Shown piece after piece: positions 5,396 through 31,589 of a stretch of 41,925 nt of DNA. The notes below the pieces were generated by a model, which made no database searches, was not told where the DNA came from, and saw only the letters and a program-made list of their open reading frames with translations. The stretch comes from an uncultured Bacilli bacterium (GTDB taxonomy: Bacteria; Bacillota_I; Bacilli_A; RF39; UBA660): contig CALVSM010000002.1 of the NCBI GenBank assembly GCA_944359025.1, positions 1 to 41,925 of the forward strand, in the 5' to 3' direction. The number at the start of each line of letters is the position of its first letter. Position 1 is the first letter of the stretch. The translations under genes were made by a program, and so were the position numbers.

Positions 5396-5424
5396 ATTAT
5401 ATTTTAAAATAAATTATTTGTCAA
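5396..5424 (-). promoter_or_regulatory. Consensus sigma-A-type promoter upstream of spoIIID (TTGACA-N17-TATAAT)
   Basis: On the minus strand the -35 TTGACA is at 5419..5424 and overlaps the lepA stop. A 17-nt spacer follows, then the -10 TATAAT at 5396..5401. Confidence 0.45.
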
Positions 5425-7220
5425 TTTTCCTCAACTTTTAAAACAGCCAAAAATGCTTCCTCTGGTATTTCAACACGCCCTACCATCTTCATTTTCTTTT
5501 TACCTTCTTTTTGCTTTTCTAATAATTTTCTTTTTCTTGACACATCCCCACCATAACATTTAGCTAAAACATCTTTCCTAACTGCTTTAATGGTTTCTCG
5601 TGCTATTACCTTATTACCGATACTAGCTTGAACTGGTACTTCAAATTGCTGTCTTGGAATCATCTTTCTTAATGTTTCAACAATATTTTTACCTCTTTTA
5701 TAAGCAAAATCTTTATGAACTATAACACTTAAAGCATCGACTACTTCCCCGTTTAATAAAATATCCATTTTAACTAAATCACTTGATTTATAACCGATTA
5801 ATTCATAATCGAAAGAAGCATATCCTTTAGAAATACTTTTTAAACGGTCAAAAAAATCATATACTATTTCTGATAAAGGTATTTCATAATGAATATTTAC
5901 TCTTGTTTTATCTAAATATTCCATCGAAATATAATTACCTCTTTTATCTTGACATAATTCCATAATCGGTCCGATATACTCACTTGGTACGAAAATAGAA
6001 GTTTTAATATAAGGTTCTTTAATATCTTTTATTTTTACTTTATCTGGCATTTTACTAGGACTATCGATATTTATAATAGTATCATCAGTTAAAGTTACCT
6101 CATAAATAACCGAAGGACTAGTTACGATTAGATTGATATTAAATTCTCTTTCGATTCTTTCTTTAATTATTTCTAAATGTAGTAACCCTAAAAAACCACA
6201 TCTAAACCCAAAACCTAAAGCTTTAGAAGTTTCTGGTATAAATTCTAATGAAGCATCGTTTAACTTTAATTTTTCTAAAGCATCCCTTAAATCAGGATAT
6301 TTAGATGTTTCAATCGGATAAATACCTGAAAAAACCATCGGTTTCATTGGTTTATATCCTGGTAAGATATCTTTAGCTTGATTATTATTTAATGTGATAG
6401 TATCTCCTACTTTAATATCAGCTATATCTTTAATTGCTGCACATAAATAACCAACTTCACCAGCTACTAATTTATCTTTTTTTATCTCTTTAGGTGAATT
6501 AATACCTAGTTCGACAACTTCTTCAACTTTGTTTGTCGCCATTAATTTTATTTTATCTCCTACTTTTACTTGCCCATTAACTACTCTAATTAAAGCAACA
6601 ACTCCCCGATATGAATCATAAAAGCTATCAAATATTAAAGCTTGTAATGGTTTATTAATACTTCCTTGAGGAGCTGGTATTTTTTTTATTATAGCTTGAA
6701 TTAATTCTTTAATTCCAATCCCATTTTTCGCTGAAGTTAAAATTATTTCATCTTTACTAAAACCAAATGTATCTTCTAATTCTTTTGTTACTTTATCGAT
6801 ATCCGCATTCGGTAAATCTATTTTGTTGATAACCGGTATAATAGTTAAGTTGTTATCTAAAGCTAAATATAAATTAGCTAATGTTTGAGCTTCGATTCCT
6901 TGAGCAGCGTCGACAACTAAAATAGCTCCTTCACAAGCTGCTAAAGACCTGCTTACTTCATAATTAAAATCGACATGCCCTGGAGTATCGATTAAATGTA
7001 ATATATATTCTTCATTATTATATTGATATTTTAATTGAACAGCATTTAATTTAATTGTAATACCTCTTTCTCTTTCAATATCCATATTATCTAATAATTG
7101 CTCTTGTTTTTCTCTTTCGTTTATTGCTCCTGTTTCTTCTAATATGCGATCAGCTAAAGTACTTTTACCATGATCGATATGAGCAATAATTGAAAAATTT
7201 CGGATGTTTTCTTGTTTCAT
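5421..7220 (-). CDS. lepA: Translation elongation factor 4 (LepA)
   Basis: It shows [28 protein letters not shown] and NKID GTPase motifs plus the conserved LepA C-terminal domain, across 599 aa. Confidence 0.97.
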
Positions 7221-7305: not shown

Positions 7306-7320
7306 ATTGTGGATAAGCTA

Positions 7321-7348
7321 CACCTTGCCGCATTATCGGCAAGGTGTG
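7321..7348. other. Perfect 11-bp GC-rich hairpin in the 3' UTR of the large pilin-like gene
   Basis: ACACCTTGCCG-CATTAT-CGGCAAGGTGT. No U-tract follows on either strand. An upstream CAAGGT (minus strand) could pair alternatively with ACCTTG. Confidence 0.6.
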
Positions 7349-7393: not shown

Positions 7394-9425
7394 TTATATT
7401 TCGTATGGACTCGACCAAGTACCATTACCTCCGGTAATGGTGACATTAGAGTTGACAACTATAACTGCACGAAGGCCGTACGCGTCGCTGACACTGTCGC
7501 TGACGCCGACGCCGGCGAAGCTGACGTACCAAGCGTAAGAACTAGAAGTTCCCGGTGTCATTGTCCAATAATCATTCGCATTACCAAAGCTACTTGCAGT
7601 TGTATATCCTTTTGTTAGGATACTACTACTTTGTCCTGATAACATCTCTCCTATTCTTATTAACCCTACTGTTGCATTGATACTCCTTGTTGGACTATTT
7701 TCTTCCAATGATATCGTATAATTACCACCAGAAGTAAATTCATTTTGATGCCATGTATAATTTGTTACTAATTTATCTCTATTTTCAGTATCACTACTTG
7801 CTACTAACCATTCTAATACATCACTATTTAATTTTTGACCTATTCCCGTTGTTATTGAAAATGTATTATTACTTCCATATTCCATTTCATAAACACTACC
7901 GTTTTCTTCATAATAGCCATCTAGTATTAATTTGGTATTGCCATTACTATCTTTATCGACTACCCGATATTTCTTTCCAGCATATAATACATACTCCCCA
8001 CTTGTTGCTTTTTCGTTTAATTTGCCTGTTACTTCTATACTCTTATCTTCGTTTAAAATATATGGGCCAGCACTACTACTCCAAGTTGCTCCTAGAGTAC
8101 CATTACCTCCGGTAATGGTGACATTAGAGTTGACATTTATAACTGCACGAAGGCCGCCCGCGGCGTCGACACTGCCGGAGTTGCGGCCGGTGATGTTGAC
8201 GAGCCAAGCGCGAGAACCATCATATGGCGTTAATGTCCAAAATACTTGCTGATTAACTAAATAAGAACTATCAGCTCCAGCTAAATTATTTTCATCTAAT
8301 GATATTAAGCCTACTTTGGCTTTTTCCGTCGATAAATTATTACTACAATTTGTCCTTGCACTTGAAACATCTGTCACAGTCTCACTACACCATGTTTGCT
8401 CTACAATAATATCATTTCCTTTTAATCTTGAATAAAAATAATTATTTAACCAATCTTTAGCATGACTTCCATCATAATTTAAAGCGGTATCTTCTGCTCC
8501 CCATGGTATAGCCGTGACATTTTCTTCGATTATTAATCTCACACTTCCATCAGCATTAATTCCCATAATACGCCATAAGAAACCTGAATACCATATATAA
8601 TTATTATATACTTTAACTTGAAAATATTTTTCAGATGTCGTTCCAAATGCAACTTCAAAAGCAGTATCTACTCCATAACTTTCTAAAAGTCCAGCATCCA
8701 TTCCCCCATCCGTAAATGCCCAATTTTCAAATTCTTCTGCTTTAAATTCACCATTTGTTTTAAAAAAACGAGCATCGATTTCTTCTCTTGAAGTAAAACC
8801 AGATAATAACATCAAACTATAAAAATTTTCTTTAGGGTCAATACCACCTTTTAAATAACAACCTCCCATATAACTATAATTGTTACTTCCTGGGTTCACA
8901 CAGCCATTACCATCAGTTTCTAAAAAAGGGAAATTAGATAACACTACATCTTTAATTGGTCCAGTATGTATTATAGCTACTTCATCATCACTTGCCTCAC
9001 ATACTTCATCATCCATCACAAAACTTCCATCGGCACACAATTTAAAAATATGGCCGTTACTTTCTACTTCTAATTCCGTTAATTTACCATCTTCATAAGT
9101 TACTTTATTAACTGTAGCATTGCCTAAATTAACCATATCATTTACTTCTTCTACCGTTACTCCATCCGCACATATATCAGGTGTACCATTTAACTCTTGT
9201 TCCATTTTTGATGTCGCACAATAGTTATTAATACCACTATAAATCATCCTTGCTTCCGAACGACCTGCTGATATACGCGCATCACTAATTACATTTAAGA
9301 TAATTGGTGTCGCAATTAAAGCTACTATTGCTAGTATAATTATTACTGCTAATAATTTAATTAATGTAAAATTATTATTTAATAATTTCCCCCCCCCCCC
9401 GAATTTGCGATTTGCAATTTTTCAT
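7394..9425 (-). CDS. Large type IV pilin-like protein with two DUF1566/C-type-lectin-like modules carrying DGR-style variable regions; frame-shifted (phase OFF) at a G12 tract as sequenced
   Basis: The track ORF 7394..9247 is open upstream to 9421 but has no start codon there. An ATG at 9425 with RBS GGAAAGGAAG and its own promoter lies in the +1 frame and stops at 9375..9377. Removing one G from the tract at 9389..9400 yields MKNCKSQIRGGGKLLNNNFTLIKLLAVIIILAIVALIATPIILNVISDAR..., a class III (pilin) signal paralogous to the pilin at 12018..12428. Confidence 0.75.
7418..7456 (-). repeat. 39-nt post-VR block, copy A (100% identical to 8096..8134), with a 9-bp perfect hairpin
   Basis: The plus strand agtaccattacctccggtaatggtgacattagagttgac is identical in both copies. 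ACCATTACC / GGTAATGGT pair around a 3-nt loop (7421..7441). Confidence 0.9.
7457..7537 (-). other. DGR-type variable region A (C-terminal module), about 60-67% G+C
   Basis: The coding strand reads TAC GCT TGG TAC GTC AGC TTC GCC GGC GTC GGC GTC AGC GAC AGT GTC AGC GAC GCG TAC GGC CTT CGT GCA GTT ATA GTT. It differs from copy B only at codon positions 1-2. Confidence 0.7.
8096..8134 (-). repeat. 39-nt post-VR block, copy B, with the same 9-bp hairpin (8099..8119)
   Basis: It is identical to 7418..7456, although the surrounding protein modules are strongly diverged. Confidence 0.9.
8135..8212 (-). other. DGR-type variable region B (internal module)
   Basis: The coding strand reads CGC GCT TGG CTC GTC AAC ATC ACC GGC CGC AAC TCC GGC AGT GTC GAC GCC GCG GGC GGC CTT CGT GCA GTT ATA AAT. 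Codon usage is NNC inside an NNT/NNA gene. Confidence 0.7.
9389..9400 (-). repeat. Homopolymeric G12 (C12 on the plus strand) tract within codons 9-13 of the large pilin-like gene
   Basis: Counted directly: cc at 9389..9390 plus ten c at 9391..9400. It is the only long G/C homopolymer seen in this AT-rich window. It sits between the ATG (9425) and the body of the ORF, which are 178 nt apart (3n+1). Confidence 0.95.
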
Positions 9426-9462
9426 TTTAAAACTTCCTTTCCTATTTTTTACTTTCAAATTA

Positions 9463-9491
9463 ATTTTATCTTAAAATAAGTTAATAGTCAA
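9463..9491 (-). promoter_or_regulatory. Sigma-A-type promoter of the large pilin-like gene (TTGACT-N17-TAAAAT)
   Basis: On the minus strand the -35 TTGACT is at 9486..9491, followed by a 17-nt spacer and the -10 TAAAAT at 9463..9468. The architecture matches the small pilin promoter. Confidence 0.5.
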
Positions 9492-9519
9492 TATTAAAAT
9501 TACACATACACGAAAAAAA

Positions 9520-11940
9520 CTAAAGATTTCTCTTTAATTTTCTCATATAAATTATTAATGATATAAAAGATATTAAACTAATAACTATACCTAATTTAAA
9601 ACCTTTAACTTCATAAGTTATCTCGATATTATGTCTTCCTTCCGTTAAATCTAAACCAATAAAATTATCGATTACTTTATAATAAGAGGTTTCTTTTCCA
9701 TCAACTAATATTTTAAAATTATCATTATAAGGAATCGATAAAAATAATACATTTTCATTAGACACATCAATTGTTCCTTTAATATAATTTTCTTTAAAAT
9801 CAGTTATATTTAATTGGTTATCTTTTAATTTATCATAAGCTTCCTTAAATTTATCTAAATCAAAATAACCAACATATAAATTATCAACATTATGTTCTCT
9901 TTCATAAGTTATTTTTAATTTATCTCCTATATCATATTTATTTTCAACAAAAATACTGCGATTAGAAGTAGCATTTAAATCATAACAAATAGTTTCATCG
10001 ATACACATTTTATAAAATTTATCTAAAAATAAACTATCCTCAACTAAAAAATAAAAATCTTTATCACTATTAATAATTATCTCATCTTCTACTTTTTCAA
10101 TTTGATAAATATCATCAATACCCGTCATAGATTTAATTATTTTATTTTGACAATCAAACCCATTATCACAATCTAATTCTTTTCTAACATCATGCGAAAC
10201 CATATAACCTAAACTAAGCGCATAAGGGTTTTTATATAAATAATTATCCATATAAATAACGCCATAAAGCATATTATCCAAAGATGATATTTTTTTAGTA
10301 TCGATTAGTTCATAATATTTATTTTTACTAACCGAGTTATAATATTTGATACCAAATAAACTATCTAGTAAAACATACGAATTATAAAAACCTGTGTTGT
10401 TATCACTATAGTAACCTATTTTATTATAAAAATCACTATTAACACTAGTACTAGAAAACCATCCAGTTACGCCATAATAATCATAATTTAAAGGGTCGTT
10501 AAATGCTGTTTTCTTTTCAAATTCCATCCGATAAAAAGAATCATCTTGAATACTATTTATACTATCAACTTTTTCAAAATACCTTCCCTCTAAATATTTT
10601 TGATAAGTAAAGACATAGCAATCTAATATCATATACCCGTTAAAAAATAATTCTGCTATAACTAAAATACTAAATAGTATTTTCGCATCACGATTATCAG
10701 TTTTAAATATAAATAAATATATTAGAAGTAAAATGACATTAATATAAATAAAAATTAGTACAATTGTGTTTTTAACAATAAATATTTCTAATAAAATAAG
10801 ACAAATTAAAAATATCACATAATACCACAACTTATCAACATTCTTAATATTAATTAATGATTTTAAACACCAAGATATAAATAAAATATTAAATAAATAC
10901 ATATATCTAAAATTAAAACCTATCGGCGTACTAAAGCCATGCCATATATCGTTTAAAGGAACTATTAAAACACTTAAAATTAAAATAAAGACAAATATAC
11001 TTGATAATATTTTTTCTCTTTTAGGAATCTTTTTATTAACAAAGTAAAAGAACAATAAGATAATATTAAATATACCAATATATAAAAATGGCGTAAATTC
11101 ATTCATAATTTCCGTTTGATTATGCGAACCTAAAAATAATTTAGATAAAATACCAATAAAATCAGTATTAAACAAATAACTTTTTAAATTATTACCCAAC
11201 CTCCCTGTATTCATTATTTCTAATAAATTAGGTAAATTTAAAAACATCGTCATCAAACCAGATAACAAAGAAATAATTAAAAAATTTCTTATTTTAAAAT
11301 GATTTTTCTCATTATTTAATAAATATTTATATATAAAATATAAAACACTAAAGATACAACACATAAACCCCATATAATAATTAGTTAAAACAATTAAAAA
11401 TAAAATAATACTATATAACCAATATTTATTTTCTTTAATTATTTTATCGATACCTAATAAAAGAAGAGGCGCTAAAAAGTAAGCATCTAACCACATTATT
11501 TGATAATAATTTACAATTGTAAAAAATGATAAAGCATAAGCTGTCGAAAATAATAAAGTATATTTACTTTTAAAATGATACTGTAAATAATGATACATTG
11601 TTAAACCACATAAACTCATCTTTAGTAAAATTAGAATAGTAAATGCTATTTCCATCTTATCATAACTAAATAAATTAACTAATAAATTAAAAGGACTAGC
11701 TAAATAATAAGCAAATGTCGCTAACATTGAACTTCCAAAACCAATAGAAAAAGAATAAAACAAATTAGAAGAACCATCAAATACTCTTTTTAAAAATAAC
11801 AATAATTGATAATATTGATATTGCGAATCACCATATAAAATAGTATATCGGCCAAAGATAATATCTCTTAAAATAAAAAGTAATATAAAACATGTCAAAG
11901 GAATTAAAAAAGCTAATAAATATTTAATTTTATTATGCAT
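9520..11940 (-). CDS. YfhO-family polytopic membrane protein (GT-C-type glycosyltransferase)
   Basis: It is 806 aa with about 13 or more N-terminal TM helices. The N-terminal GDSQYQYYQL motif is typical of YfhO. A large extracytoplasmic C-terminal domain is followed by a final TM. Confidence 0.75.
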   Translation of the reverse strand: MHNKIKYLLAFLIPLTCFILLFILRDIIFGRYTILYGDSQYQYYQLLLFLKRVFDGSSNLFYSFSIGFGSSMLATFAYYLASPFNLLVNLFSYDKMEIAFTILILLKMSLCGLTMYHYLQYHFKSKYTLLFSTAYALSFFTIVNYYQIMWLDAYFLAPLLLLGIDKIIKENKYWLYSIILFLIVLTNYYMGFMCCIFSVLYFIYKYLLNNEKNHFKIRNFLIISLLSGLMTMFLNLPNLLEIMNTGRLGNNLKSYLFNTDFIGILSKLFLGSHNQTEIMNEFTPFLYIGIFNIILLFFYFVNKKIPKREKILSSIFVFILILSVLIVPLNDIWHGFSTPIGFNFRYMYLFNILFISWCLKSLINIKNVDKLWYYVIFLICLILLEIFIVKNTIVLIFIYINVILLLIYLFIFKTDNRDAKILFSILVIAELFFNGYMILDCYVFTYQKYLEGRYFEKVDSINSIQDDSFYRMEFEKKTAFNDPLNYDYYGVTGWFSSTSVNSDFYNKIGYYSDNNTGFYNSYVLLDSLFGIKYYNSVSKNKYYELIDTKKISSLDNMLYGVIYMDNYLYKNPYALSLGYMVSHDVRKELDCDNGFDCQNKIIKSMTGIDDIYQIEKVEDEIIINSDKDFYFLVEDSLFLDKFYKMCIDETICYDLNATSNRSIFVENKYDIGDKLKITYEREHNVDNLYVGYFDLDKFKEAYDKLKDNQLNITDFKENYIKGTIDVSNENVLFLSIPYNDNFKILVDGKETSYYKVIDNFIGLDLTEGRHNIEITYEVKGFKLGIVISLISFISLIIYMRKLKRNL

Positions 11941-11974
11941 ATTACCACCTATATAATCATATCACATTTTAACA

Positions 11975-12007
11975 ATAAAAAAAATAAGAACTATTTAAAA
12001 GTCCTTA
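11975..12007 (-). terminator. Rho-independent terminator after the small pilin gene
   Basis: The minus strand reads ATAAGGAC-TTTTAAATA-GTTCTTAT (8 bp with one G-U pair) followed by T8. Confidence 0.6.
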
Positions 12008-12017
12008 TCTTTATCTA

Positions 12018-12428
12018 TTAGTTAGAAGCTACTCCTTTAGATAAACTAAATGAGTTACCACTTAAAGTAGCTGTGTATCCATTACTTTCAACAACAAGTG
12101 CAGAAACTCCACTTTCGCCATAAGTTACAGAAACAATTTTAGCTTTACCTAAAGTTACCATTTGGCCAACTTCAGCTGCAGTTACTTCATAACCATTTTT
12201 AGCAGCATTTAAACAAATACTATCTTGAGTACTATTTAATTGATCTTTCATGTCAGCAGTAGCGCAGTAATTATTGATACCACTTAAAATCATACTAGCT
12301 TCAGATTCAGCAGCACTTTTTCTTGCATCGTCAATTACGTTTAAAATAATTGGTGTTGCGATTAATGCTACGATAGCTAAAATGATAATTACAGCTAACA
12401 ATTCGATTAATGTAAAACCTTTTTTCAT
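12018..12428 (-). CDS. Type IV pilin / ComGC-like pseudopilin with a canonical prepilin signal
   Basis: MKKG|FTLIELLAVIIILAIVALIATPIIL carries the N-methylation motif with Gly-1 and Glu+5. It is 136 aa with a GGTGGTGA RBS. Confidence 0.85.
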   Translation of the reverse strand: MKKGFTLIELLAVIIILAIVALIATPIILNVIDDARKSAAESEASMILSGINNYCATADMKDQLNSTQDSICLNAAKNGYEVTAAEVGQMVTLGKAKIVSVTYGESGVSALVVESNGYTATLSGNSFSLSKGVASN

Positions 12429-12464: not shown

Positions 12465-12493
12465 AATTATACATATTTTTTTAAAACAAGTCA
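12465..12493 (-). promoter_or_regulatory. Sigma-A-type promoter of the small pilin gene (TTGACT-N17-TATAAT)
   Basis: On the minus strand the -35 TTGACT is at 12488..12493, followed by a 17-nt spacer ending in TG and the -10 TATAAT at 12465..12470. Confidence 0.55.
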
Positions 12494-12509
12494 AGTTTTT
12501 TTAAAACAT

Positions 12510-15038
12510 TTATTTTAATTTGTCGACAATTATCGCTAATTCTTTTTGTTCCTTAATTAAACTACTTTTTTCATTTTCCACAATTTCTTTAGGTGCTTTA
12601 TTAATATATCCCGAATTAGCTAATAATTTTTCTCTTCTTGCAATTGAATTAATTAATCTCTCTTTTTCTTTTAATAATCTCTCTTTTTCTTCAAGTGATA
12701 AACTACCATCATAATATATAGAAACTAAATCATTATTAAAACTAATATTGATTCTTGTAAATACCCCTTCATATGAAGTTAAAATATTTTCATTTTTTAA
12801 TATTTTACTAATCAATATACGATTATCCATAATTAATTTATTGTTAGTTACTATTAGATAATCTTTACCTAAATTATTTTCTAATTTAATTTTTCTAATT
12901 TTTTTAATCAATTCTATCAATAAATCTAAAGTATCTTCCATAAAAATATATTCTTTATTAAATTTAGGATATTCACTAATCATGATAGATTCATCACGAA
13001 TTGGTAACATTAAATATATTTCTTCAGTAACATAAGGCATAAAAGGATGTAATAATTTTAAAATATTAGTTAAAACAATCAACAACACAGTTTTAGTAGT
13101 ATCATTCATATTTACTTTAGCAAGTTCAATATACCAATCACAAAAATCATCCCAAATAAAACTATATAACTCTTTACCAACAACATTAAAATCATACTTA
13201 TCCATATGTTTAGTTACATTATTTATTAAATTGTTCATTTTATTTAATATCCATTTATCACTAATCGATAAATTATCCAAAGTATAGTTAAAATCTTCGA
13301 TATTCATTAAAACAAACCGCGATGCATTCCACAACTTATTAATAAAATTCCAAGCCGCTTTTACTTTTTCCTCATCGTATCTTAAATCAGTACCACTAGC
13401 AGTAGTAGTTGCTAGAAAATACCTTAAAGCATCGGTTCCATATTGTTCGATAACATCCATCGGATCAACACCATTACCCAATGATTTACTCATTTTTCTT
13501 CCCAACTTATCTCTAATCAAACCATGAATCAAACAATCTTTAAATGGTCGAGAATTAGTAAAATGTAAACCTTGAAAAGTCATCCTATTAACCCAAAAAG
13601 GAATAATATCGTATCCAGTTACTAAAACATTATTAGGGTAATACCTATTTAATAAATCTAAATTATCTGGCCAACCCAAGGTACTAAACGGCCATAAAGC
13701 TGAAGAAAACCAAGTATCTAAAACATCTGGATCTTGTACCCAATCATCATCAGGTTTATCATATCCAACATAAACTTCATCACCTTTATACCAAGCTGGT
13801 ATTTGATGCCCCCACCATAATTGTCGTGATATACACCAATCATAAGTTATTTCCATCCAATGATTCATTATTTTTTCATATCTTGTTGGAATAAAATTAA
13901 CTTTAGTTTTCTTGTTTTTTTGATTTTCTAATACAGCATCAGCCAAAGGACGCATCTTGACAAACCATTGTTTAGATAAATAAGGTTCAATCATAACATC
14001 GGTTCTTTCTGAATGACCAACCGCATGGGTTATTTTTTCTACTTTAATTAATAAATTTTCTTTTTCTAAATCTTCTACTAATTGTTTACGACATTCAAAT
14101 CGATCCAAACCATTATATTTAAAAGCATTTTCATTCATTGTTCCATCAGGGTTAATGGCGATTATTCTTTCTAAATTATGACGATTACCTACTTCAAAAT
14201 CGTTTGGATCATGCGCTGGCGTTATTTTAACAACACCTGTTCCAAACTCTGGGTCAGCATGTTCATCAGCGATAATTGGTATTTTTTTATTAACGACTGG
14301 TAAGATAACATTTTTCCCAAGATATTTTTGATATCTTTTATCATTAGGATTAACCGCTACAGCTGTATCACCAAATAAAGTTTCAGGTCTTGTTGTCGCT
14401 ACTTCTAAATATTCATCAGTTCCTTCAATATAATATTTAAGATGATAAAAAGCTCCTTCGACATCTTTATAAATAACTTCTTCATTTGATAAAGCAGTCA
14501 TCGCTTTAGGATCCCAGTTAATAATACGTTCGCCACGATAAATTAAACCTTCATTATATAAATCAATAAATACTTTTTTAACCGCTTTCGATAAACCCTC
14601 ATCTAAAGTAAATCTTTCTTTCGTATAATCTAACGATAAACCTAATTTAGCCCACTGTTCGTGAATATTATCAGCATATTCTTCTTTCCATTCCCAAGCA
14701 TACTTAAGCCATTCATCACGCTTTAAACTACGAGGGTTAATACCCATTTCTTTTAATTTAGCATCGACTTTAGCTTGTGTAGCAATACCAGCATGATCCA
14801 TTCCCGGCAACCACAAAGCATCATAACCTTGCATTCTTTTATATCTAATTATAATATCCTGTAAAGTTGTATCCCAAGCATGACCTAAATGTAATTTACC
14901 AGTTACATTAGGGGGTGGGATAACGATACAATATGGTTTTTTCGATAAATCACCACTTGTAAAATACCCCTTTTCCTTCCAATTATTGTATTTATTTTTT
15001 TCTACTTCTAAATGATTATACTTCGCTTCCAACATCAT
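12510..15038 (-). CDS. valS: Valine--tRNA ligase
   Basis: It has a [14 protein letters not shown] (HIGH) motif, KMSKS, the class Ia editing domain and a C-terminal coiled coil, across 842 aa. Confidence 0.97.
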
Positions 15039-16003: not shown

Positions 16004-16058
16004 TAATTCAAACAACATTTAAACAGTTAATTTATTTAAATTATTGATAAAGTTTTTA
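16004..16058. repeat. 55-bp direct repeat, copy 1 (duplicate of the recO 3' end plus 15 nt of downstream flank)
   Basis: taattcaaacaacatttaaacagttaatttatttaaattattgataaagttttta is identical to 16655..16709. Confidence 0.9.
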
Positions 16059-16062
16059 ACAA

Positions 16063-16575
16063 TTATTTATTATTTACTTTCCAATAACCGCTTTCTTGAT
16101 AATAAATTTTCAATGTCTTAAATTCTAAATCTTGTTTAGGAGACTTTATTTTTCTTAACGAATTCCTCGTTCTTTTAGAAAATAAATTAAGAATAGTTTC
16201 ACCGTTCATGCTTTCAACTGAAGAACCGACTCTAATAAAACAACTGTCTGGAGTCATACCCATACCTCTTAAATAATATGGTCTCTCATTACCTTTTGCA
16301 ACAATAATTTGTATATAATTTTTATTGTTTTTTTTATTTACAATAACATCAAATAAACCCAAAGTTGAAGGCATAATATTATTCTTTAATCTATCTTTTA
16401 TAGTTCTTTGTAATAAATCTATATTTTCTAAACTATCTTGAATATTTCCATTGTCATCTACCCCAATAAAAATATTCCCTCCATCAGTGTTTAAAAAAGC
16501 AATTACTTCTTTTTCTAGACTATCAGTAATTTTTGCTTTAAATTCGTTTCTTTTATCTTCCAATAATTCTATCAA
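16063..16575 (-). CDS. AlbA_2 (Schlafen-like) domain protein, apparently C-terminally truncated
   Basis: NEFKAKITDSLEKEVIAFLNTDGGNIFIGVDDNGNI is the typical AlbA_2 N-terminal motif. Full-length relatives are about 400-500 aa with HATPase/HTH parts, but this one ends 5 nt from repeat copy 1. It has a TTG start after GGTGAT. Confidence 0.6.
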   Translation of the reverse strand: MIELLEDKRNEFKAKITDSLEKEVIAFLNTDGGNIFIGVDDNGNIQDSLENIDLLQRTIKDRLKNNIMPSTLGLFDVIVNKKNNKNYIQIIVAKGNERPYYLRGMGMTPDSCFIRVGSSVESMNGETILNLFSKRTRNSLRKIKSPKQDLEFKTLKIYYQESGYWKVNNK

Positions 16576-16654: not shown

Positions 16655-16709
16655 TAATTCAAACAACATTTAAACAGTTAATTTATTTAAATTATTGATA
16701 AAGTTTTTA
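16655..16709. repeat. 55-bp direct repeat, copy 2 (the authentic recO 3' end)
   Basis: It is identical to 16004..16058 and contains the last 13 codons plus the stop of recO. Confidence 0.9.
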
Positions 16710-22355: not shown

Positions 22356-22444
22356 GACAATCACCTAATACAGTTTATGCGATTAATTTTAAATGTGTAC
22401 ATATAAACTATTTTCATGATATAATATTTATGAGGTGTACTTTA

Positions 22445-23716
22445 ATGGAAAAGATAAAAGAATTTTTTTCTAAATTTAAAATTAATCGGTTAAATAAAAA
22501 ATTAATTCGCGGTGTTTTGATAATTGTTTTTGTGATTTTAGTTTCATATTTTATTATATCTAGTATTATAACAGGTAATCATAATCGTACTTGTAATGAG
22601 TTACGCGAAGAAATTTTAGCCGCAACTGATATATATATGTCAGAAAACAATTTATTACCAACTTTAAATGGTACTAGCAGCACAATGGCATTATCTGATT
22701 TATATAATAGTATTATTTTTAAAGACTATGCTGTAACAGGAACCGTTACTTATACCAAATATAATGATGAATATGTTAAAACGATAGAATTAGATAATGC
22801 TGATTTTTGTACTACTAAAGAATTTAATGAAGAATCTAGTGAATATGATAGTTCAAAAAATGCTAAAGTAGAAGTTACTTTTAACTATGTTACTGTTGAT
22901 TCTTATAATTCTAAATGGACTGATTGGTACCCTAGTGAATATATCAGTACTGAAGAAACAAATGGGGTCTTACTCCCATTAGATGAAGATCGCTTACCTG
23001 ATATTCCTAATGGCGCTATTATTACCGAATATGTAAGAGAAACTGATACCTATTATAGTTATCGTGATAAAAGATGGCGTTGGTATAAAAACAATGTTAA
23101 ATATAGTGATTTTAGTTCGGAAAAACCTAAAGGTTATACCACTAAAGACACATCCGTCACTTTATCTAGTGAAGCCACTCCTTGGAGTTTAGATTATCCT
23201 GAAGAAAAAGATTATCGTCATATTAAAAGAACAACTGGATATCGTTGGTATTATTTAAACGAAAACGAAGAAAAAATTTACTGGAATAATGGCGAATATA
23301 GTCCTGAATCACCGGGTGAGGAATACCAAAGAGATACCGAATTAAAAGCAACCATGTATTCTTATACTGACGATATGTGGCGTTGGTATAACGGCGATAC
23401 TAAAAGAATTTATAGTAGTTACAGTTCAACTAAACCTAAAAATTATAATTATAAAGATAGTGAAACTTTAACTTATTCTAATTGGTCTAAATATTACGAA
23501 GAAAGTCATCTTGATAGTTCTAATAAAAGTTATCGCGAAGAAAGAACCGATATTTATTCTAGATACTTAATTAAATATGATATTCAAAGTTACCCAATTT
23601 TAGAAAATTATGTGTCTTTAGGCGAATTAGAAGTTGCTGTTGGAAAATCATATGAACAAATTAATGAAGATGATTCTCTACAAGTATTAGTAAATTTTAA
23701 ATTCTATTACGAATAA
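22445..23716 (+). CDS. Membrane-anchored extracytoplasmic protein with aromatic Y-x-Y-R / W-R-W-Y repeats
   Basis: It has an N-terminal TM (GVLIIVFVILVSYFIISSII). Repeats include YSYRDKRWRWY, YRWYYLN and YSYTDDMWRWY. The ATG at 22445 follows GAGGTG. No family was recognised. Confidence 0.5.
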   Translation: MEKIKEFFSKFKINRLNKKLIRGVLIIVFVILVSYFIISSIITGNHNRTCNELREEILAATDIYMSENNLLPTLNGTSSTMALSDLYNSIIFKDYAVTGTVTYTKYNDEYVKTIELDNADFCTTKEFNEESSEYDSSKNAKVEVTFNYVTVDSYNSKWTDWYPSEYISTEETNGVLLPLDEDRLPDIPNGAIITEYVRETDTYYSYRDKRWRWYKNNVKYSDFSSEKPKGYTTKDTSVTLSSEATPWSLDYPEEKDYRHIKRTTGYRWYYLNENEEKIYWNNGEYSPESPGEEYQRDTELKATMYSYTDDMWRWYNGDTKRIYSSYSSTKPKNYNYKDSETLTYSNWSKYYEESHLDSSNKSYREERTDIYSRYLIKYDIQSYPILENYVSLGELEVAVGKSYEQINEDDSLQVLVNFKFYYE

Positions 23717-27727: not shown

Positions 27728-29554
27728 TTATTTTTTAAATTTTTGATTTTTAAATATTATATAAATCAAAAGAATAAACAAAAGAACTATAATGGTTATA
27801 TCTAAAATACTATGACCATTAATCTTTAAAATATAATCACTTAACTTATTGTCTAAATTTGAATCTTCTAGACATTTGCTTTCATATTGTTTAATTATAT
27901 TATCTTTTTCTTTTAATTTATTATTCATCGCTTCATTTAATAATTTCAAATCTTCATTTAATTCTGCGATTTTATTTTGATAAAATTCATTAGCATTTGT
28001 TAACTCGGTAATTTCCCTATATTTTAAAGCTATATCATTGTTTAAAACAATCGCTTCTTTCTTTAAATTATTTATTTCTTCTTCTAAACTAATTATTTCC
28101 TTTTGTAATTCTTGATTATCTTTTTTTAAAGTAGTTAATTCATCGATTTTTGATATAAGCTCCGCTTGTAACCTATTAACTTTATCAATTAAATCTTGCA
28201 ATTCTTGTTCTTGTTTTTTTAAAAGTTCTTCTTTTTGTTTTAATGTTTCTTTTAAACAACTATTTTCTTTTTGACAATTATCTAACTTTTCGTTTAAATC
28301 ATTTATTTTTGCTTCATACTCTTGTTCTTTATCGTGTAAATAATCTTCTAAAGATATAATTTCTTCTTTTAAATCAGCTATTTCTTGTTCTAAATCAAAA
28401 ATAGTATTTTCTAAAATGTTTAATTTTACATCTTTAGTTACTACGATATCATTTAAAATAAATTTAACTTCATAGTTACCGTTTTTTTGCCAATCAATAT
28501 TGTTTTGAATATTAACTTTATCAGTACTAAAAACAATAAAATCATTTAAGTCAAAATTCTTATCCGTAATATCATGAATGTTTATTTCCAATTTATCACG
28601 AAGACGATAGCGGTAAAAATTCTTCTTACTTGCTTCATCTTTATAAATATAATCATAAATAGCTGTATTAGAATATTCATTATAATATTCTTTTTCTTCT
28701 TCGATAACTTTACACCATTTTTCCTGATAACGGTATTGTTTAGTTACCTTAACATCAACTATATTAGAATGATTTTCTTCTTCATAAGAAATTTCTTTTG
28801 TTGTCCATTCACTAATATCGATATTAAAATCGGTAATTTTTTTAACTTCCTTTTTTGCATTTGACCAATGATAATCAGCAAAACGTAATAAATATCCTTG
28901 AGCGACAAAAATATCTTTTTTATCTTTTGAATAACCAATTGTATATTTTTTATCGCTAGGACCTAAATCAAAAATATAAAAAATGGTTTCAATTTGATTT
29001 AAAGGATACTCTTTACCTAAATCGATAATTAAAGAGCCACCATTATCGATATATGACATATTTTCTTCATAAATACCATTATGAATATAATCGTCAAATC
29101 CTGCTAAACAGCCATCACAAGTATAATCATAGTCAATTTCCTTACCATTTACCTTGACCATCAATTCAGTTATTCTAAAAGCGCCATAGCTTCCTTGCAA
29201 ATTGTATAAGTGAATATATCTAATTGCTTCGGCTTTAGTATATTCATACTTATTTCTTTCTTCATAAACATAACCAACATTATCTACTTTTTCTTCTTGC
29301 CAATTAGAATAATTAGTTAAATAACATTCATCACTAAATTTATCTTCTTGATTATATAATTTATAGTCGCCGATTACTTCATTTTTTTTATACCAAAGAT
29401 ACCTTTCTTCCACTGCAACATCAACAATATCTGATGCGACAACCTCTTCTTCTTGATAACTAGAAAAATCAGAATAATTAGAATAATATACTTCGCTAGC
29501 TTCTACTTTAGAACCAATAACAAGTAAAAATATTAACCATAAAATCTTTTTCAT
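27728..29554 (-). CDS. Secreted, C-terminally TM-anchored protein: aromatic-repeat N-terminal region, discoidin-like segment and a long coiled coil
   Basis: It has a signal peptide (MKKILWLIFLLVIGSKVEA). It carries YRYR/WxxW-type motifs. A heptad-rich region of about 200 aa (EQEIADLKEEIISLE...LQAELISKIDELTTLKK) precedes a terminal TM (ITIIVLLFILLIYIIF). A GGAGGTGA RBS is present. Confidence 0.6.
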   Translation of the reverse strand: MKKILWLIFLLVIGSKVEASEVYYSNYSDFSSYQEEEVVASDIVDVAVEERYLWYKKNEVIGDYKLYNQEDKFSDECYLTNYSNWQEEKVDNVGYVYEERNKYEYTKAEAIRYIHLYNLQGSYGAFRITELMVKVNGKEIDYDYTCDGCLAGFDDYIHNGIYEENMSYIDNGGSLIIDLGKEYPLNQIETIFYIFDLGPSDKKYTIGYSKDKKDIFVAQGYLLRFADYHWSNAKKEVKKITDFNIDISEWTTKEISYEEENHSNIVDVKVTKQYRYQEKWCKVIEEEKEYYNEYSNTAIYDYIYKDEASKKNFYRYRLRDKLEINIHDITDKNFDLNDFIVFSTDKVNIQNNIDWQKNGNYEVKFILNDIVVTKDVKLNILENTIFDLEQEIADLKEEIISLEDYLHDKEQEYEAKINDLNEKLDNCQKENSCLKETLKQKEELLKKQEQELQDLIDKVNRLQAELISKIDELTTLKKDNQELQKEIISLEEEINNLKKEAIVLNNDIALKYREITELTNANEFYQNKIAELNEDLKLLNEAMNNKLKEKDNIIKQYESKCLEDSNLDNKLSDYILKINGHSILDITIIVLLFILLIYIIFKNQKFKK

Positions 29555-30372: not shown

Positions 30373-30530
30373 ACTTCATAGAAAACTTAGCTTTCTCCAT
30401 AGACCAACCTCGGATGGTCGCCACCCTATTTTTATTTCATTCAAAACTAATTGAATTGCAGTTCGTCCATATACTGTTTTAACCCTTCATTCATAATATT
30501 AATACTAGCGTTTAAATCTCGTTCATTTTT
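30373..30530 (-). ncRNA. Putative omega (re) RNA scaffold of the TnpB element
   Basis: In characterised IS605-family elements, the region overlapping the tnpB 3' end and about 75-100 nt downstream encodes the guide RNA. Here it contains an unusually GC-rich structured stretch, GGGTGGCGACCATCCGAGGTTGGTCTATGGAG (minus strand). The boundaries and guide cannot be defined by eye. Confidence 0.3.
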
Positions 30531-31589
30531 ATTTTGACATTTTGGACATTCCCACTCTCTTATCTTTAGATTTTTTAATTCTTTATTTTTATAGCCACAA
30601 TGACTACATATTTGACTACTTGGATAACTGGTATCTATTTGGTAGAATTTCTTATTCTTCCACTTACTTTTATACGATATACATCTTATTAGTTCTTGCC
30701 AACTGGCATCATATATTTGTTTAGAAAGATGGGAGTTTTTTACCATTTGATTTATCTTTAATTTTTCAGCCACAATTATGTCATTTTCTTCGGTTATTTC
30801 TTTACTTATTTGATGAATGAGATATTTTCTTGCATTTCTTAACTTTTGATAGACTCTAGCTAGTTTTAATCTAATCTTTTCGCGATTTTTGCTTCCTTTT
30901 TGGCTTCGTGATAACCATTTTTGTAACCCTTTGATTTTCTTTTCATATTTTTGAATATATTTTTGATTATCATATACTTTACCATCGGATGTTATAACTA
31001 GATTTTTTATTCCTAAATCTAGCCCGATTATTGTTTTAGGTGTTATTATTGGTTGATTGATATATTCTTCGACACAAACACTAACATAATATTTATTTGC
31101 TTCTTTATAAACTGTCGCATTAATAATTTTGCCATTTATTTGTTTTAAGTTGCGATATCCTTTAATAGCTACTTCTTTTAATTTGGGTAATTTGATTATT
31201 TTTTTATTCAAATCTAGTTCGATACTGTTATATGTTTTTTCTTTATAATTACTTGTTATGTTATTCGTCCGATAACTTTGTCGGCTTCTTGTTTTACTTT
31301 TAAATTTTGGTAAACCTTTCTTTTCTTTAAAATATTTTTGATAAGCGTTATCCAAATTAAAAATACTACATCGAAGTAAACAACTATCTACTTCTTTTAA
31401 CCATAGATATTCATTTATTAATTCTGGTAATTTTTTTATATAATTATAAGCATTAATTTTTTCTTCTTTGCTGATGTCTAAAAAATAGTTATAAATAAAT
31501 CTTGAACAGCCAATACTTTTTTCAATTAAGATTGCCTGTTCCTTAGTTGGATATAATCTAAACACATAACCTTTTAATATTTTTTCCAT
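30447..31589 (-). CDS. tnpB: IS605/IS1341-family TnpB (OrfB) RNA-guided endonuclease
   Basis: The N-terminus KGYVFRLYPTKEQ is typical of OrfB. Candidate RuvC residues lie in IIGLDLGIKN, IVAEKL and RDLNASINI. The zinc ribbon is CSHCGY...CPKCQ. It is 380 aa. Confidence 0.9.
   Translation of the reverse strand: MEKILKGYVFRLYPTKEQAILIEKSIGCSRFIYNYFLDISKEEKINAYNYIKKLPELINEYLWLKEVDSCLLRCSIFNLDNAYQKYFKEKKGLPKFKSKTRSRQSYRTNNITSNYKEKTYNSIELDLNKKIIKLPKLKEVAIKGYRNLKQINGKIINATVYKEANKYYVSVCVEEYINQPIITPKTIIGLDLGIKNLVITSDGKVYDNQKYIQKYEKKIKGLQKWLSRSQKGSKNREKIRLKLARVYQKLRNARKYLIHQISKEITEENDIIVAEKLKINQMVKNSHLSKQIYDASWQELIRCISYKSKWKNKKFYQIDTSYPSSQICSHCGYKNKELKNLKIREWECPKCQNKNERDLNASINIMNEGLKQYMDELQFN

Follow-up and report, generated by a model that had tools for sequence, protein, structure and literature searches.

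A stretch of 41,925 nucleotides (nt) from an uncultured Bacilli bacterium (contig CALVSM010000002.1; hereafter, the window) carries a gene for a large protein in which a type IV pilin N-terminus is joined to two hypervariable modules. We read this gene as encoding a phase-variable, modular type IV pilin adhesin that is diversified by a diversity-generating retroelement (DGR) and whose copy in the window is switched OFF, and we give this reading a probability of roughly 0.68. An adhesive, probably tip-exposed 'modular pilin' is the most reasonable description of the product; we infer its incorporation into a filament, its location at the tip, its role in adhesion and its switching in real time. 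An initial annotation of this DNA had proposed a diversified pilus-tip adhesin recognizable by the loss of Gly at -1 and Glu at +5. The pilin with hypervariable modules and the targeting by a DGR stand, while the loss of those two residues does not serve as a marker.

Two variable heads on a type IV pilin module

When in frame, the large gene runs on the minus strand from an ATG at 9423..9425 to a stop at 7394..7396 (window 7394..9425) and encodes 676 amino acids (aa). Its N-terminal part resembles a small pilin encoded nearby on the same strand (12018..12428; N-terminus MKKGFTLIELLAV). BLASTP aligned the two with 60% identity over 118 residues (E = 7e-29), and the paralogy thus spans the whole pilin module, well beyond the shared transmembrane helix, in agreement with the ~120 residues initially proposed from sequences that are indeed found in the window. 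The hydrophobic helix of the large protein (FTLIKLLAVIIILAIVALIATPIIL) is that of the small pilin save for a Lys at +5. The large protein has no match to PF07963 (N_methyl) in Pfam at E <= 0.1; the small pilin and most homologs do match. A full-length AlphaFold model built on a 70-sequence alignment (mean predicted local distance difference test score (pLDDT) of 58.9) places a helix at residues 21-79 and four strands at residues 104-137 (block pLDDT ~45-85), a portion that is pilin-like as modelled. The middle domain is modelled with confidence, and the helical insert within residues 151-271 is present in some homologs and missing in others (alignment A3).

Behind the pilin module (residues 19-150) come two tandem DUF6273 modules (residues ~272-447 and 476-676) that are 35% identical to each other (E = 9e-16) and whose 3' ends are ~90% identical in DNA (8096-8177 vs 7418-7499). 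Each module closes in a variable region (VR), as had been suggested, and both VRs were located (see table). The modules had also been assigned to DUF1566, an assignment that gives way to DUF6273: among 32 modules (alignment A6), 24 match DUF6273 in Pfam and 2 have a weak Lcl_C (DUF1566) match (E = 0.055). DUF6273 has been described as C-type-lectin-like (PMC10743442), and this literature, together with the weak Lcl_C matches in 2 of the 32 modules, suggests that the heads are probably C-type-lectin-like.

We compared the large gene with L001, a syntenic locus that encodes the closest relative (P0002, 89% identity) in the same valS-pilin-YfhO-target-lepA order. The ratio of nonsynonymous to synonymous substitution rates (dN/dS) reached 8.0 in VR1 and 5.3 in VR2, compared with 0.18 outside the VRs and 0.086 for the pilin module alone. 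The two VRs of the window share one NNC-codon layout, and it is the first two positions of these codons that vary between them and relative to L001.

The large protein belongs to a sizeable family from low-GC, uncultured Bacilli of the gut, of which a word-indexed search recovered at least 743 members, most of them 580-690 aa long with both N_methyl (PF07963) and DUF6273 (PF19789), and an exhaustive HMMER search gave 137 clusters (50% identity level) at E <= 1e-30. In the exhaustive search, this pilin module also turned up joined to different C-terminal portions. Relatives are encoded by 214 stretches of the GTDB genome collection. The loci kept for comparison (1.24 Mb; L-numbers denote these loci) come nearly all from metagenome-assembled genomes (MAGs) of uncultured Bacilli and 'Tenericutes', and the source of one of them, 'Candidatus Faecisoma merdavium', belongs to GTDB order RF39, family CAG-822 (PMC8035907). 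A single genome holds several full-length paralogs (6-8 in four MAGs) along with many small pilins. No relatives were found among 2.9 million viral contigs (IMG/VR), and the genes flanking the large pilin locus are housekeeping genes; a phage origin was rejected on these grounds.

Retroelement cassettes in related genomes

DGR cassettes lie beside homologs of the large gene in several related loci. In L002, an 80-nt repeat with many AAC and AAT codons lies no more than 100 nt downstream of the homolog; beyond it come a MutS_I-like open reading frame (ORF), bAvd and RVT_1. Template repeats are found just downstream of one paralog in L002, L003, L004, L006, L010, L012, L014 and L021, and cassette genes (MutS-like, Avd and reverse transcriptase) follow the target in L002, L003, L004, L006, L010 and L074. 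An intact reverse transcriptase of 333 aa was confirmed by Pfam in L010. Every template repeat ends ...CGTGCAG, and a shared ATTCCTTCTAAAC sequence comes after the point of divergence. As a separate observation, the reverse transcriptase ORF of L002 (12897-13864) is only ~126-173 aa long, compared with 333 aa in L003, L004, L006, L010 and L074; disruption or misassembly may account for this, though the adjacent VRs are diversified.

Within single MAGs, the VRs of the adjacent gene and of paralogs on other contigs differ from the template repeat at 6-15 adenine positions (of 24-28 adenines per template) and at 0-3 non-adenine positions. Such adenine-biased mismatches across contigs are the signature of adenine mutagenesis and indicate that one element serves several remote pilin genes. 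The relatives thus prove that the architecture of a pilin with DUF6273 modules is a DGR target, and the cassettes and adenine-specific mismatches bear out the initial view of the variable modules. For the window gene itself, we infer the link to a live DGR from these relatives. A cognate template repeat would read TCTAACGCTTGGAACGTC(AAC)n...GGCCTTCGTGCAG. A strict pattern for the window's own template repeat gave 0 matches in the GTDB genome collection, and of two patterns run against JGI metagenomes, the first gave 0 matches and the second a single 1.6-kb contig with the template repeat of another lineage.

The sites at which such an element would act are also recognizable in DNA. In the Bordetella phage element, a GC-rich element and a downstream hairpin direct retrohoming. 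Likewise, both VRs of the window have a GC-rich 3' end (GGCCTTCGTGCAG) and a downstream hairpin of a kind that is lacking from the template repeat: across the loci, 39 of 60 VR-like sites carry the stem at 23 nt, their loops coming in seven sequences, compared with 0 of 13 template-repeat sites. An invariant protein motif, TIT-x-GNGT, follows each VR and is explained by a stem that is constrained in the DNA while its loop codon can vary. A 9-bp hairpin with a free loop inside coding sequence offers a handle on how DGRs find remote targets. A further hairpin past the stop codon (CACACCTTGCC...GGCAAGGTG) also precedes the template repeat in the DGR cassettes of relatives (L085 ~1520-1560; L002 ~11780-11835), which suggests that remote targets may stem from duplication of a cassette-adjacent target plus its 3' flank.

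The poly-G tract and the cleavage site

The leader codons of the large gene contain a run of twelve G (G12) that lies 25 nt past the ATG and is the only G/C run of at least 8 in the window. As assembled, the frame stops after 16 codons, and only G11 or G14 restores the 676-aa protein (MKNCKSQIRGGGKLLNNN/FTLIKLLAV...; a slash marks the prepilin cleavage site). The 676-aa reconstruction of the initial annotation holds, except that the tract in the window is G12 rather than the G11 it had assumed. Because the G12 run breaks the frame, an ORF finder gives the gene as 617 aa from an internal Met. Gene callers cut such genes where the frame shifts (for the window, the record is a 617-aa fragment), and catalogues consequently miss the pilin end.

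A scan of the 1.24 Mb of related loci for G/C runs of at least 8 revealed 12, where our base-composition estimate predicts ~0.3 by chance. All 12 are found at, or a short way upstream of, the 5' ends of pilin-family genes, and 10 are in leader codons. These ten leader tracts (that of the window included) occur in a ...GGGHLLNNA/FTLIELL subfamily and range from G8 to G14. Nine tracts can be scored, of which 3 are in frame (L001, L051 and L059) and 6 are out (L007, L027, L038, L055, L061 and the window). In this subfamily, a homopolymer in 5' coding sequence differs in length between genes and genomes and sets the frame, which, as judged from sequence, is how slipped-strand contingency loci are laid out. 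Since the mature pilin no longer contains the leader, changes in tract length that keep the frame are harmless and those that break it are silencing. In Neisseria pilC, a poly-G in the signal-peptide region switches a pilus-associated adhesin on and off. Neisseria PilC shares the gating by a leader poly-G with the present family; it differs in that it is not a pilin, is not diversified by a DGR and belongs to a Gram-negative pathogen. The two runs of the 12 that are outside leader codons, both G9 (L046 9797-9805 and L079 9865-9873), follow a leader-like aaattagcaaatagcacacat with no pilin ORF directly behind and lie ~200 nt upstream of small pilin genes; they may be remnants or promoter-region switches.

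We propose that these parts would work together as follows. The pilin module would take its place in a type IV filament, and the two tandem DUF6273 heads would bind ligand. A DGR elsewhere in the genome (template repeat, MutS-like protein, Avd and reverse transcriptase) would act in trans on several pilin paralogs: its template repeat would be transcribed and then reverse-transcribed with errors at adenines, and the complementary DNA would replace a VR, guided by the GC-rich 3' end and the 9-bp hairpin 23 nt downstream. Slipped-strand changes of the poly-G in the leader codons would gate expression, with G12 corresponding to OFF, and the product would most likely be an adhesin at or near the pilus tip. 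More broadly, small-genome uncultured gut Bacilli (RF39 relatives, 'Candidatus Faecisoma') may vary their surface in three layers on type IV pilins: a repertoire of 3-8 or more modular pilins per genome, independent rewriting of both heads in trans by a single chromosomal DGR (template repeat, MutS-like accessory (Msl), Avd and reverse transcriptase), and a poly-G gate on a subset. We consider the chances of this broader scheme to be evenly balanced. Whether a mutagenised adhesin is kept silent during rewriting is a question that such a system opens.

The window allele is unusual at its cleavage site, where the Asn at -1 (AAT) and the Lys at +5 (AAA) reported initially were confirmed in the codons; it lacks the Gly or Ala at -1 and the Glu at +5 expected of a prepilin. 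Since prepilin peptidases require Gly at -1, with Ala tolerated, an Asn there should block cleavage, and the allele, even in frame, may not be cleaved by the peptidase. Of 90 pilin N-termini from the 1.24 Mb of related loci, 64 have Gly, 24 Ala, 1 Ser and 1 (the window) Asn at -1, and 87 have Glu at +5; among 185 homologous proteins, -1 is Gly in 139 and Ala in 44, and +5 is Glu in 178. Glu+5 is thus kept in about 96% of the family. The closest syntenic ortholog (L001) reads ...LLNNA/FTLIELL, and the three bases whose change creates Asn and Lys in the window are invariant (G, G/C and G) in 42 related N-termini. The Asn-1/Lys+5 combination is therefore an oddity of this allele, in a copy that is switched off, and not part of the family design.

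Comparison of window 9350-9388 with L001 10034-10072 revealed seven substitutions, all of them to A, within 39 nt past the G tract; over the 80 nt that precede the tract the two sequences do not differ, and elsewhere the gene diverges by ~3-4%. This cluster may reflect real hypermutation, gene conversion or sequencing error. One explanation for the state of the window copy is decay, i.e., that it is a frameshift-locked remnant of a functional modular pilin that has lost two residues needed for processing and assembly. The out-of-frame G12, the uniqueness of Asn-1, the change of three otherwise invariant bases and the excess of to-A substitutions over background would all fit a decaying allele. 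However, the remaining ~2 kb of frame is intact in a genome of 25% GC, dN/dS against L001 is low outside the VRs and lowest in the pilin module, both VRs and both hairpins are intact, and the fact that 6 of the 9 comparable genes are also out of frame is what reversible switches would produce. We therefore regard decay as unlikely and favor a copy that is switched OFF.

Sequencing or assembly errors at the homopolymer could also account for G12, Asn-1 and Lys+5, in which case the real gene would be in frame with Ala-1 and Glu+5. The anomalies lie within 45 nt downstream of G12 and all are changes to A, and the related contigs are low-coverage assemblies of short-read metagenomes. Yet seven consistent base calls, two of them adjacent, are improbable as consensus errors, the sequence upstream of the tract matches L001 without error, and Lys+5 has arisen independently in P0244/L029. 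An error of this kind is quite improbable as the source of the allele, and we retain the phase-variable reading.

The remaining proposal for the cleavage site is that the loss of Gly-1 and Glu+5 marks a dedicated tip subunit resembling GspK. The tip pseudopilin GspK lacks Glu5, keeps Gly-1 and carries an alpha-domain insert. The window allele shares the absence of Glu+5 with GspK, and the family shows at least three losses of this residue, namely in the window, in P0005-P0011 (the FTLTLIII group) and in P0244/L029 (also to Lys). (P0005-P0011 were ruled out as orthologs of the window gene; they occupy a different locus and are paralogs.) Bulky heads would in addition favor a tip location, as modelled for Streptococcus sanguinis PilB (PMC8179133). 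Against this, Glu+5 is retained in nearly all relatives, the syntenic ortholog included, and is not missing family-wide as a conserved trait would be; the Gly-1 retained by GspK permits cleavage, which Asn-1 should block; and the window allele is frameshifted. Because Asn-1 is unique to the window copy and Lys+5 is rare in the family, the argument is weak, and we consider a dedicated GspK-like subunit very improbable. Some comfort for the initial idea remains in the repeated loss of Glu+5, the tolerance of which faintly hints at a subunit able to sit first in the filament.

Pilus assembly, known systems and neighboring genes

Genes for type IV pilus assembly are present in related MAGs, some of them beside these pilins. 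In L048, two modular pilins, one of which is of the DUF6273 type with Ala-1, are immediately preceded by a 650-aa T2SSF protein (PilC) and a prepilin peptidase (A24_N_bact plus Peptidase_A24; PilD). L082 conserves the PilC-PilD pair, flanked there by typA and lspA. A T2SSE (PilB-type) ATPase with a tetracysteine motif (E = 1e-126) lies beside the target in L028 and ~1.6 kb from the target in L039. It was found in these two loci with a second set of motifs (GE[IVLM]RD and [ST]xH[TAS]N); a first ATPase motif scan had returned ABC transporters only, and the Walker A of the ATPase reads GATGTGKS. No retraction ATPase was seen in the loci. The other modular pilin of L048 (6230-7918) is of a second kind: it is 562 aa long, reads KKFG/FTLIELL, has a different, unannotated C-terminal module and adjoins PilC, PilD and the DUF6273 pilin.

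These genes bear on the possibility that the pilin-like N-terminus is only a signal for export and anchoring, like the class III signal peptides of archaeal sugar-binding proteins, with the heads displayed on the cell surface and no extended pilus. The many monocistronic paralogs per genome, mostly away from assembly genes, are consistent with such an anchor, as is the failure to see a retraction ATPase, and an uncleavable Asn-1 variant would stay in the membrane. However, it is the whole globular pilin module that is conserved (dN/dS 0.086) and not the helix alone, Glu+5 is kept across almost the entire family, small canonical pilins that could form a shaft are abundant in the same genomes, and PilB, PilC and PilD are present in related MAGs. 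We consider a mere anchor rather improbable and prefer a pilin that enters a filament.

Several observations nonetheless weigh against a DGR-diversified, phase-variable pilin in this genome. The window contains no template repeat, reverse transcriptase or Avd within its 41.9 kb. Relative to the nearest template repeat found (L010), VR2 has mismatches at 18 of 28 adenines but also 6 non-adenine mismatches, and because of these mismatches and of the missing template and reverse transcriptase, current DGR activity on the window gene is unproven. The four VRs of the window and L001 differ in length by whole codons (19, 20, 21 and 22 codons), which simple replacement from a single template would not yield. 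The allele fails the prepilin motif, with Asn-1, Lys+5 and no Pfam N_methyl match. PilB, PilC and PilD were seen in related MAGs and not in this genome, of which the window covers 41.9 kb; their absence from the window had been noted initially, and a Pfam scan agrees. The C-type lectin fold is unconfirmed: the DUF6273 modules score below 50 pLDDT in the full-length model and 47.4 in a module-only model (32-sequence alignment), Foldseek searches of the PDB with either model returned noise only, and a sequence profile search of the PDB with the modules gave no match. Finally, homopolymer lengths may be wrong in short-read metagenome assemblies.

Each part of the proposed system is of a known kind. 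The type V pilus tip adhesins of Bacteroides (BfrT, BthT and BunT; bioRxiv 10.1101/2024.11.15.621889) are likewise pilus subunits whose head is rewritten by a cellular, non-phage DGR. Their cassette has Avd and the MutS-like accessory Msl, and in our relatives the ORF beside Avd matches MutS_I; both systems belong to gut commensals. Bacteroides type V pilins are, however, lipoproteins joined by strand exchange, whereas the heads described here are borne by a type IV pilin module that has a class III signal peptide and comes from a monoderm (single-membrane) organism, and the present family further differs in its two VRs per protein, its many remote paralogs per genome and its poly-G switch. 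PilB (vWA) and PilC (lectin) of S. sanguinis (PMC8179133, PMC9934059) likewise carry an adhesive module on a pilin module of a Gram-positive type IV pilus, with a predicted tip location. Those modules are static, with no DGR or phase switch described, and their genes lie in the pil operon, whereas the genes of the present family are scattered and mostly monocistronic and encode DUF6273 twice.

Remote DGR targets are a known arrangement (PMC5758913). In Treponema denticola, the TvpA-type DGR (PMC4891356, PMC5758913) similarly uses one template and one reverse transcriptase for several non-adjacent targets with C-terminal VRs, but the targets are lipoproteins rather than pilins and have no homopolymer switch. 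The same Pfam family carries the VR in phage DUF6273 targets (tentaclins, Faecalibacterium prophage; PMC10743442, PMC11792537), which are reported to be C-type-lectin-like with the VR as a beta-hairpin; these are receptor-binding proteins, in contrast to the present family with its pilin N-terminus and no relatives in IMG/VR. The only mention of a DGR target with a type IV pilin end that we found is a 'GspG-type pilin' among rare VR-bearing domains (PMC11661182). Pilins go unmentioned in the main texts of two large DGR surveys and in supplements of one of them, and the accessible part of the literature on DGRs and prepilins held nothing relevant. The initial annotation knew of no described DGR target with this architecture in Gram-positive type IV pili or Com-like pseudopili.

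What is new is the combination of a modular type IV pilin, two VRs, many targets in trans and a poly-G gate. If the reading is true, no DGR-diversified adhesin system on type IV pili would have been described before, and the system would be a Gram-positive counterpart of Bacteroides type V. DGRs are very abundant in gut microbes, and roles for cellular targets are known in few cases, of which the Bacteroides type V tips are the clearest. The same strategy would here be applied to type IV pilins in uncultured, small-genome Gram-positives, with many remote targets per element and an on/off switch, so that DGR biology, modular pilins and phase variation would be joined in one system.

Table. Features of the pilin locus. 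Positions are those of the window; dN/dS values are for comparison with L001.
Feature	Position	Strand	Details
Strong hairpin past the stop, probably a terminator	7320..7347	-	-24.4 kcal/mol, z = -6.4; CACACCTTGCC...GGCAAGGTG
DUF6273-like module 2, residues 476-676	7397..7999	-	35% identical to module 1
Hairpin ACCATTACC-GGA-GGTAATGGT, 23 nt downstream of VR2	7421..7441	-	Perfect 9-bp inverted repeat, 3-nt loop
VR2	7465..7542	-	GC-rich 3' end at 7465..7477; dN/dS 5.3
DUF6273 module 1, residues 272-447	8084..8611	-	Pfam PF19789, E = 2.3e-7, residues 300-432
Hairpin ACCATTACC-GGA-GGTAATGGT, 23 nt downstream of VR1	8099..8119	-	Perfect 9-bp inverted repeat, 3-nt loop
VR1	8143..8217	-	GC-rich 3' end GGCCTTCGTGCAG at 8143..8155; dN/dS 8.0
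Linker domain and variable helical insert, residues 151-271	8612..8974	-	Block pLDDT ~62-93, mostly >75
Type IV pilin module, residues 19-150	8975..9370	-	BLASTP paralogy; AlphaFold helix and strands; dN/dS 0.086
Prepilin cleavage region	9356..9373	-	Asn -1 AAT 9371..9373; Phe +1 9368..9370; Lys +5 AAA 9356..9358
Poly-G tract G12 in leader-peptide codons	9389..9400	- (C12 on plus)	Gene out of frame
ATG start of the large gene	9423..9425	-	Preceded by ribosome-binding site GGAAAGGAAG
Promoter-like site upstream of the large gene	9463..9491	-	TTGACT, 17 nt, TAAAAT; consensus match only
YfhO-family membrane glycosyltransferase gene, between both pilin genes	9520..11940	-	Pfam YfhO, E = 5e-147
Small canonical type IV pilin	12018..12428	-	136 aa, MKKG/FTLIELL; Pfam N_methyl match

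The small pilin, the YfhO-family gene and the large gene follow one another on the minus strand between valS (12510..15038) and lepA (5421..7220). The best solved relative of the small pilin is PilE1 of the S. sanguinis type IV pilus (8pfb_G; E = 8e-9), with an alignment that extends through residue 67. Each pilin gene had been credited with its own promoter, and a terminator had been placed at 11975..12007; we located promoter-like sites at 12466..12494 and 9463..9491 that are consensus matches only, and near 11975..12007 a terminator-like hairpin followed by a U run that is an energy match only.

A small pilin directly followed by a YfhO-family (GT-C type) gene was observed in at least five genomes (window 9520-11940 and 12018-12428; L001 6998-9906; L052 10001-12845; L072 10001-13313; L081 730-4212), i.e., the pairing is kept in L001, L052, L072 and L081 as well as in the window. 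The YfhO protein might glycosylate pilins, and the conserved pair may thereby add glycosylation to the three-layer system.

The window as a whole is chromosomal DNA of ~25% GC from a spore-former, with SpoIIIAH, SpoVA, YqfD and YlbD genes. A perfect 55-nt direct repeat (16004-16058 and 16655-16709) brackets a Schlafen/AlbA_2 ORF (16063-16575) between recO and an HD-domain gene; the corresponding position in L001 holds another ORF, of 128 aa, and the arrangement resembles an inserted cassette. An IS605-family OrfB/TnpB gene lies at 30447-31589 and has OrfB_IS605, Cas12f1-like TNB and RuvC domains. Ribosomal protein S2 (87-1208) has a C-terminal Rho_N/HeH-like extension that brings it to 373 aa in total. 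Two large ORFs have no significant Pfam match: the first (22430-23716, 428 aa) contains an internal repeat (23102-23148 vs 23411-23457), and the second (27728-29554, 608 aa) gave weak sub-threshold matches only (Fez1 and ATG16).

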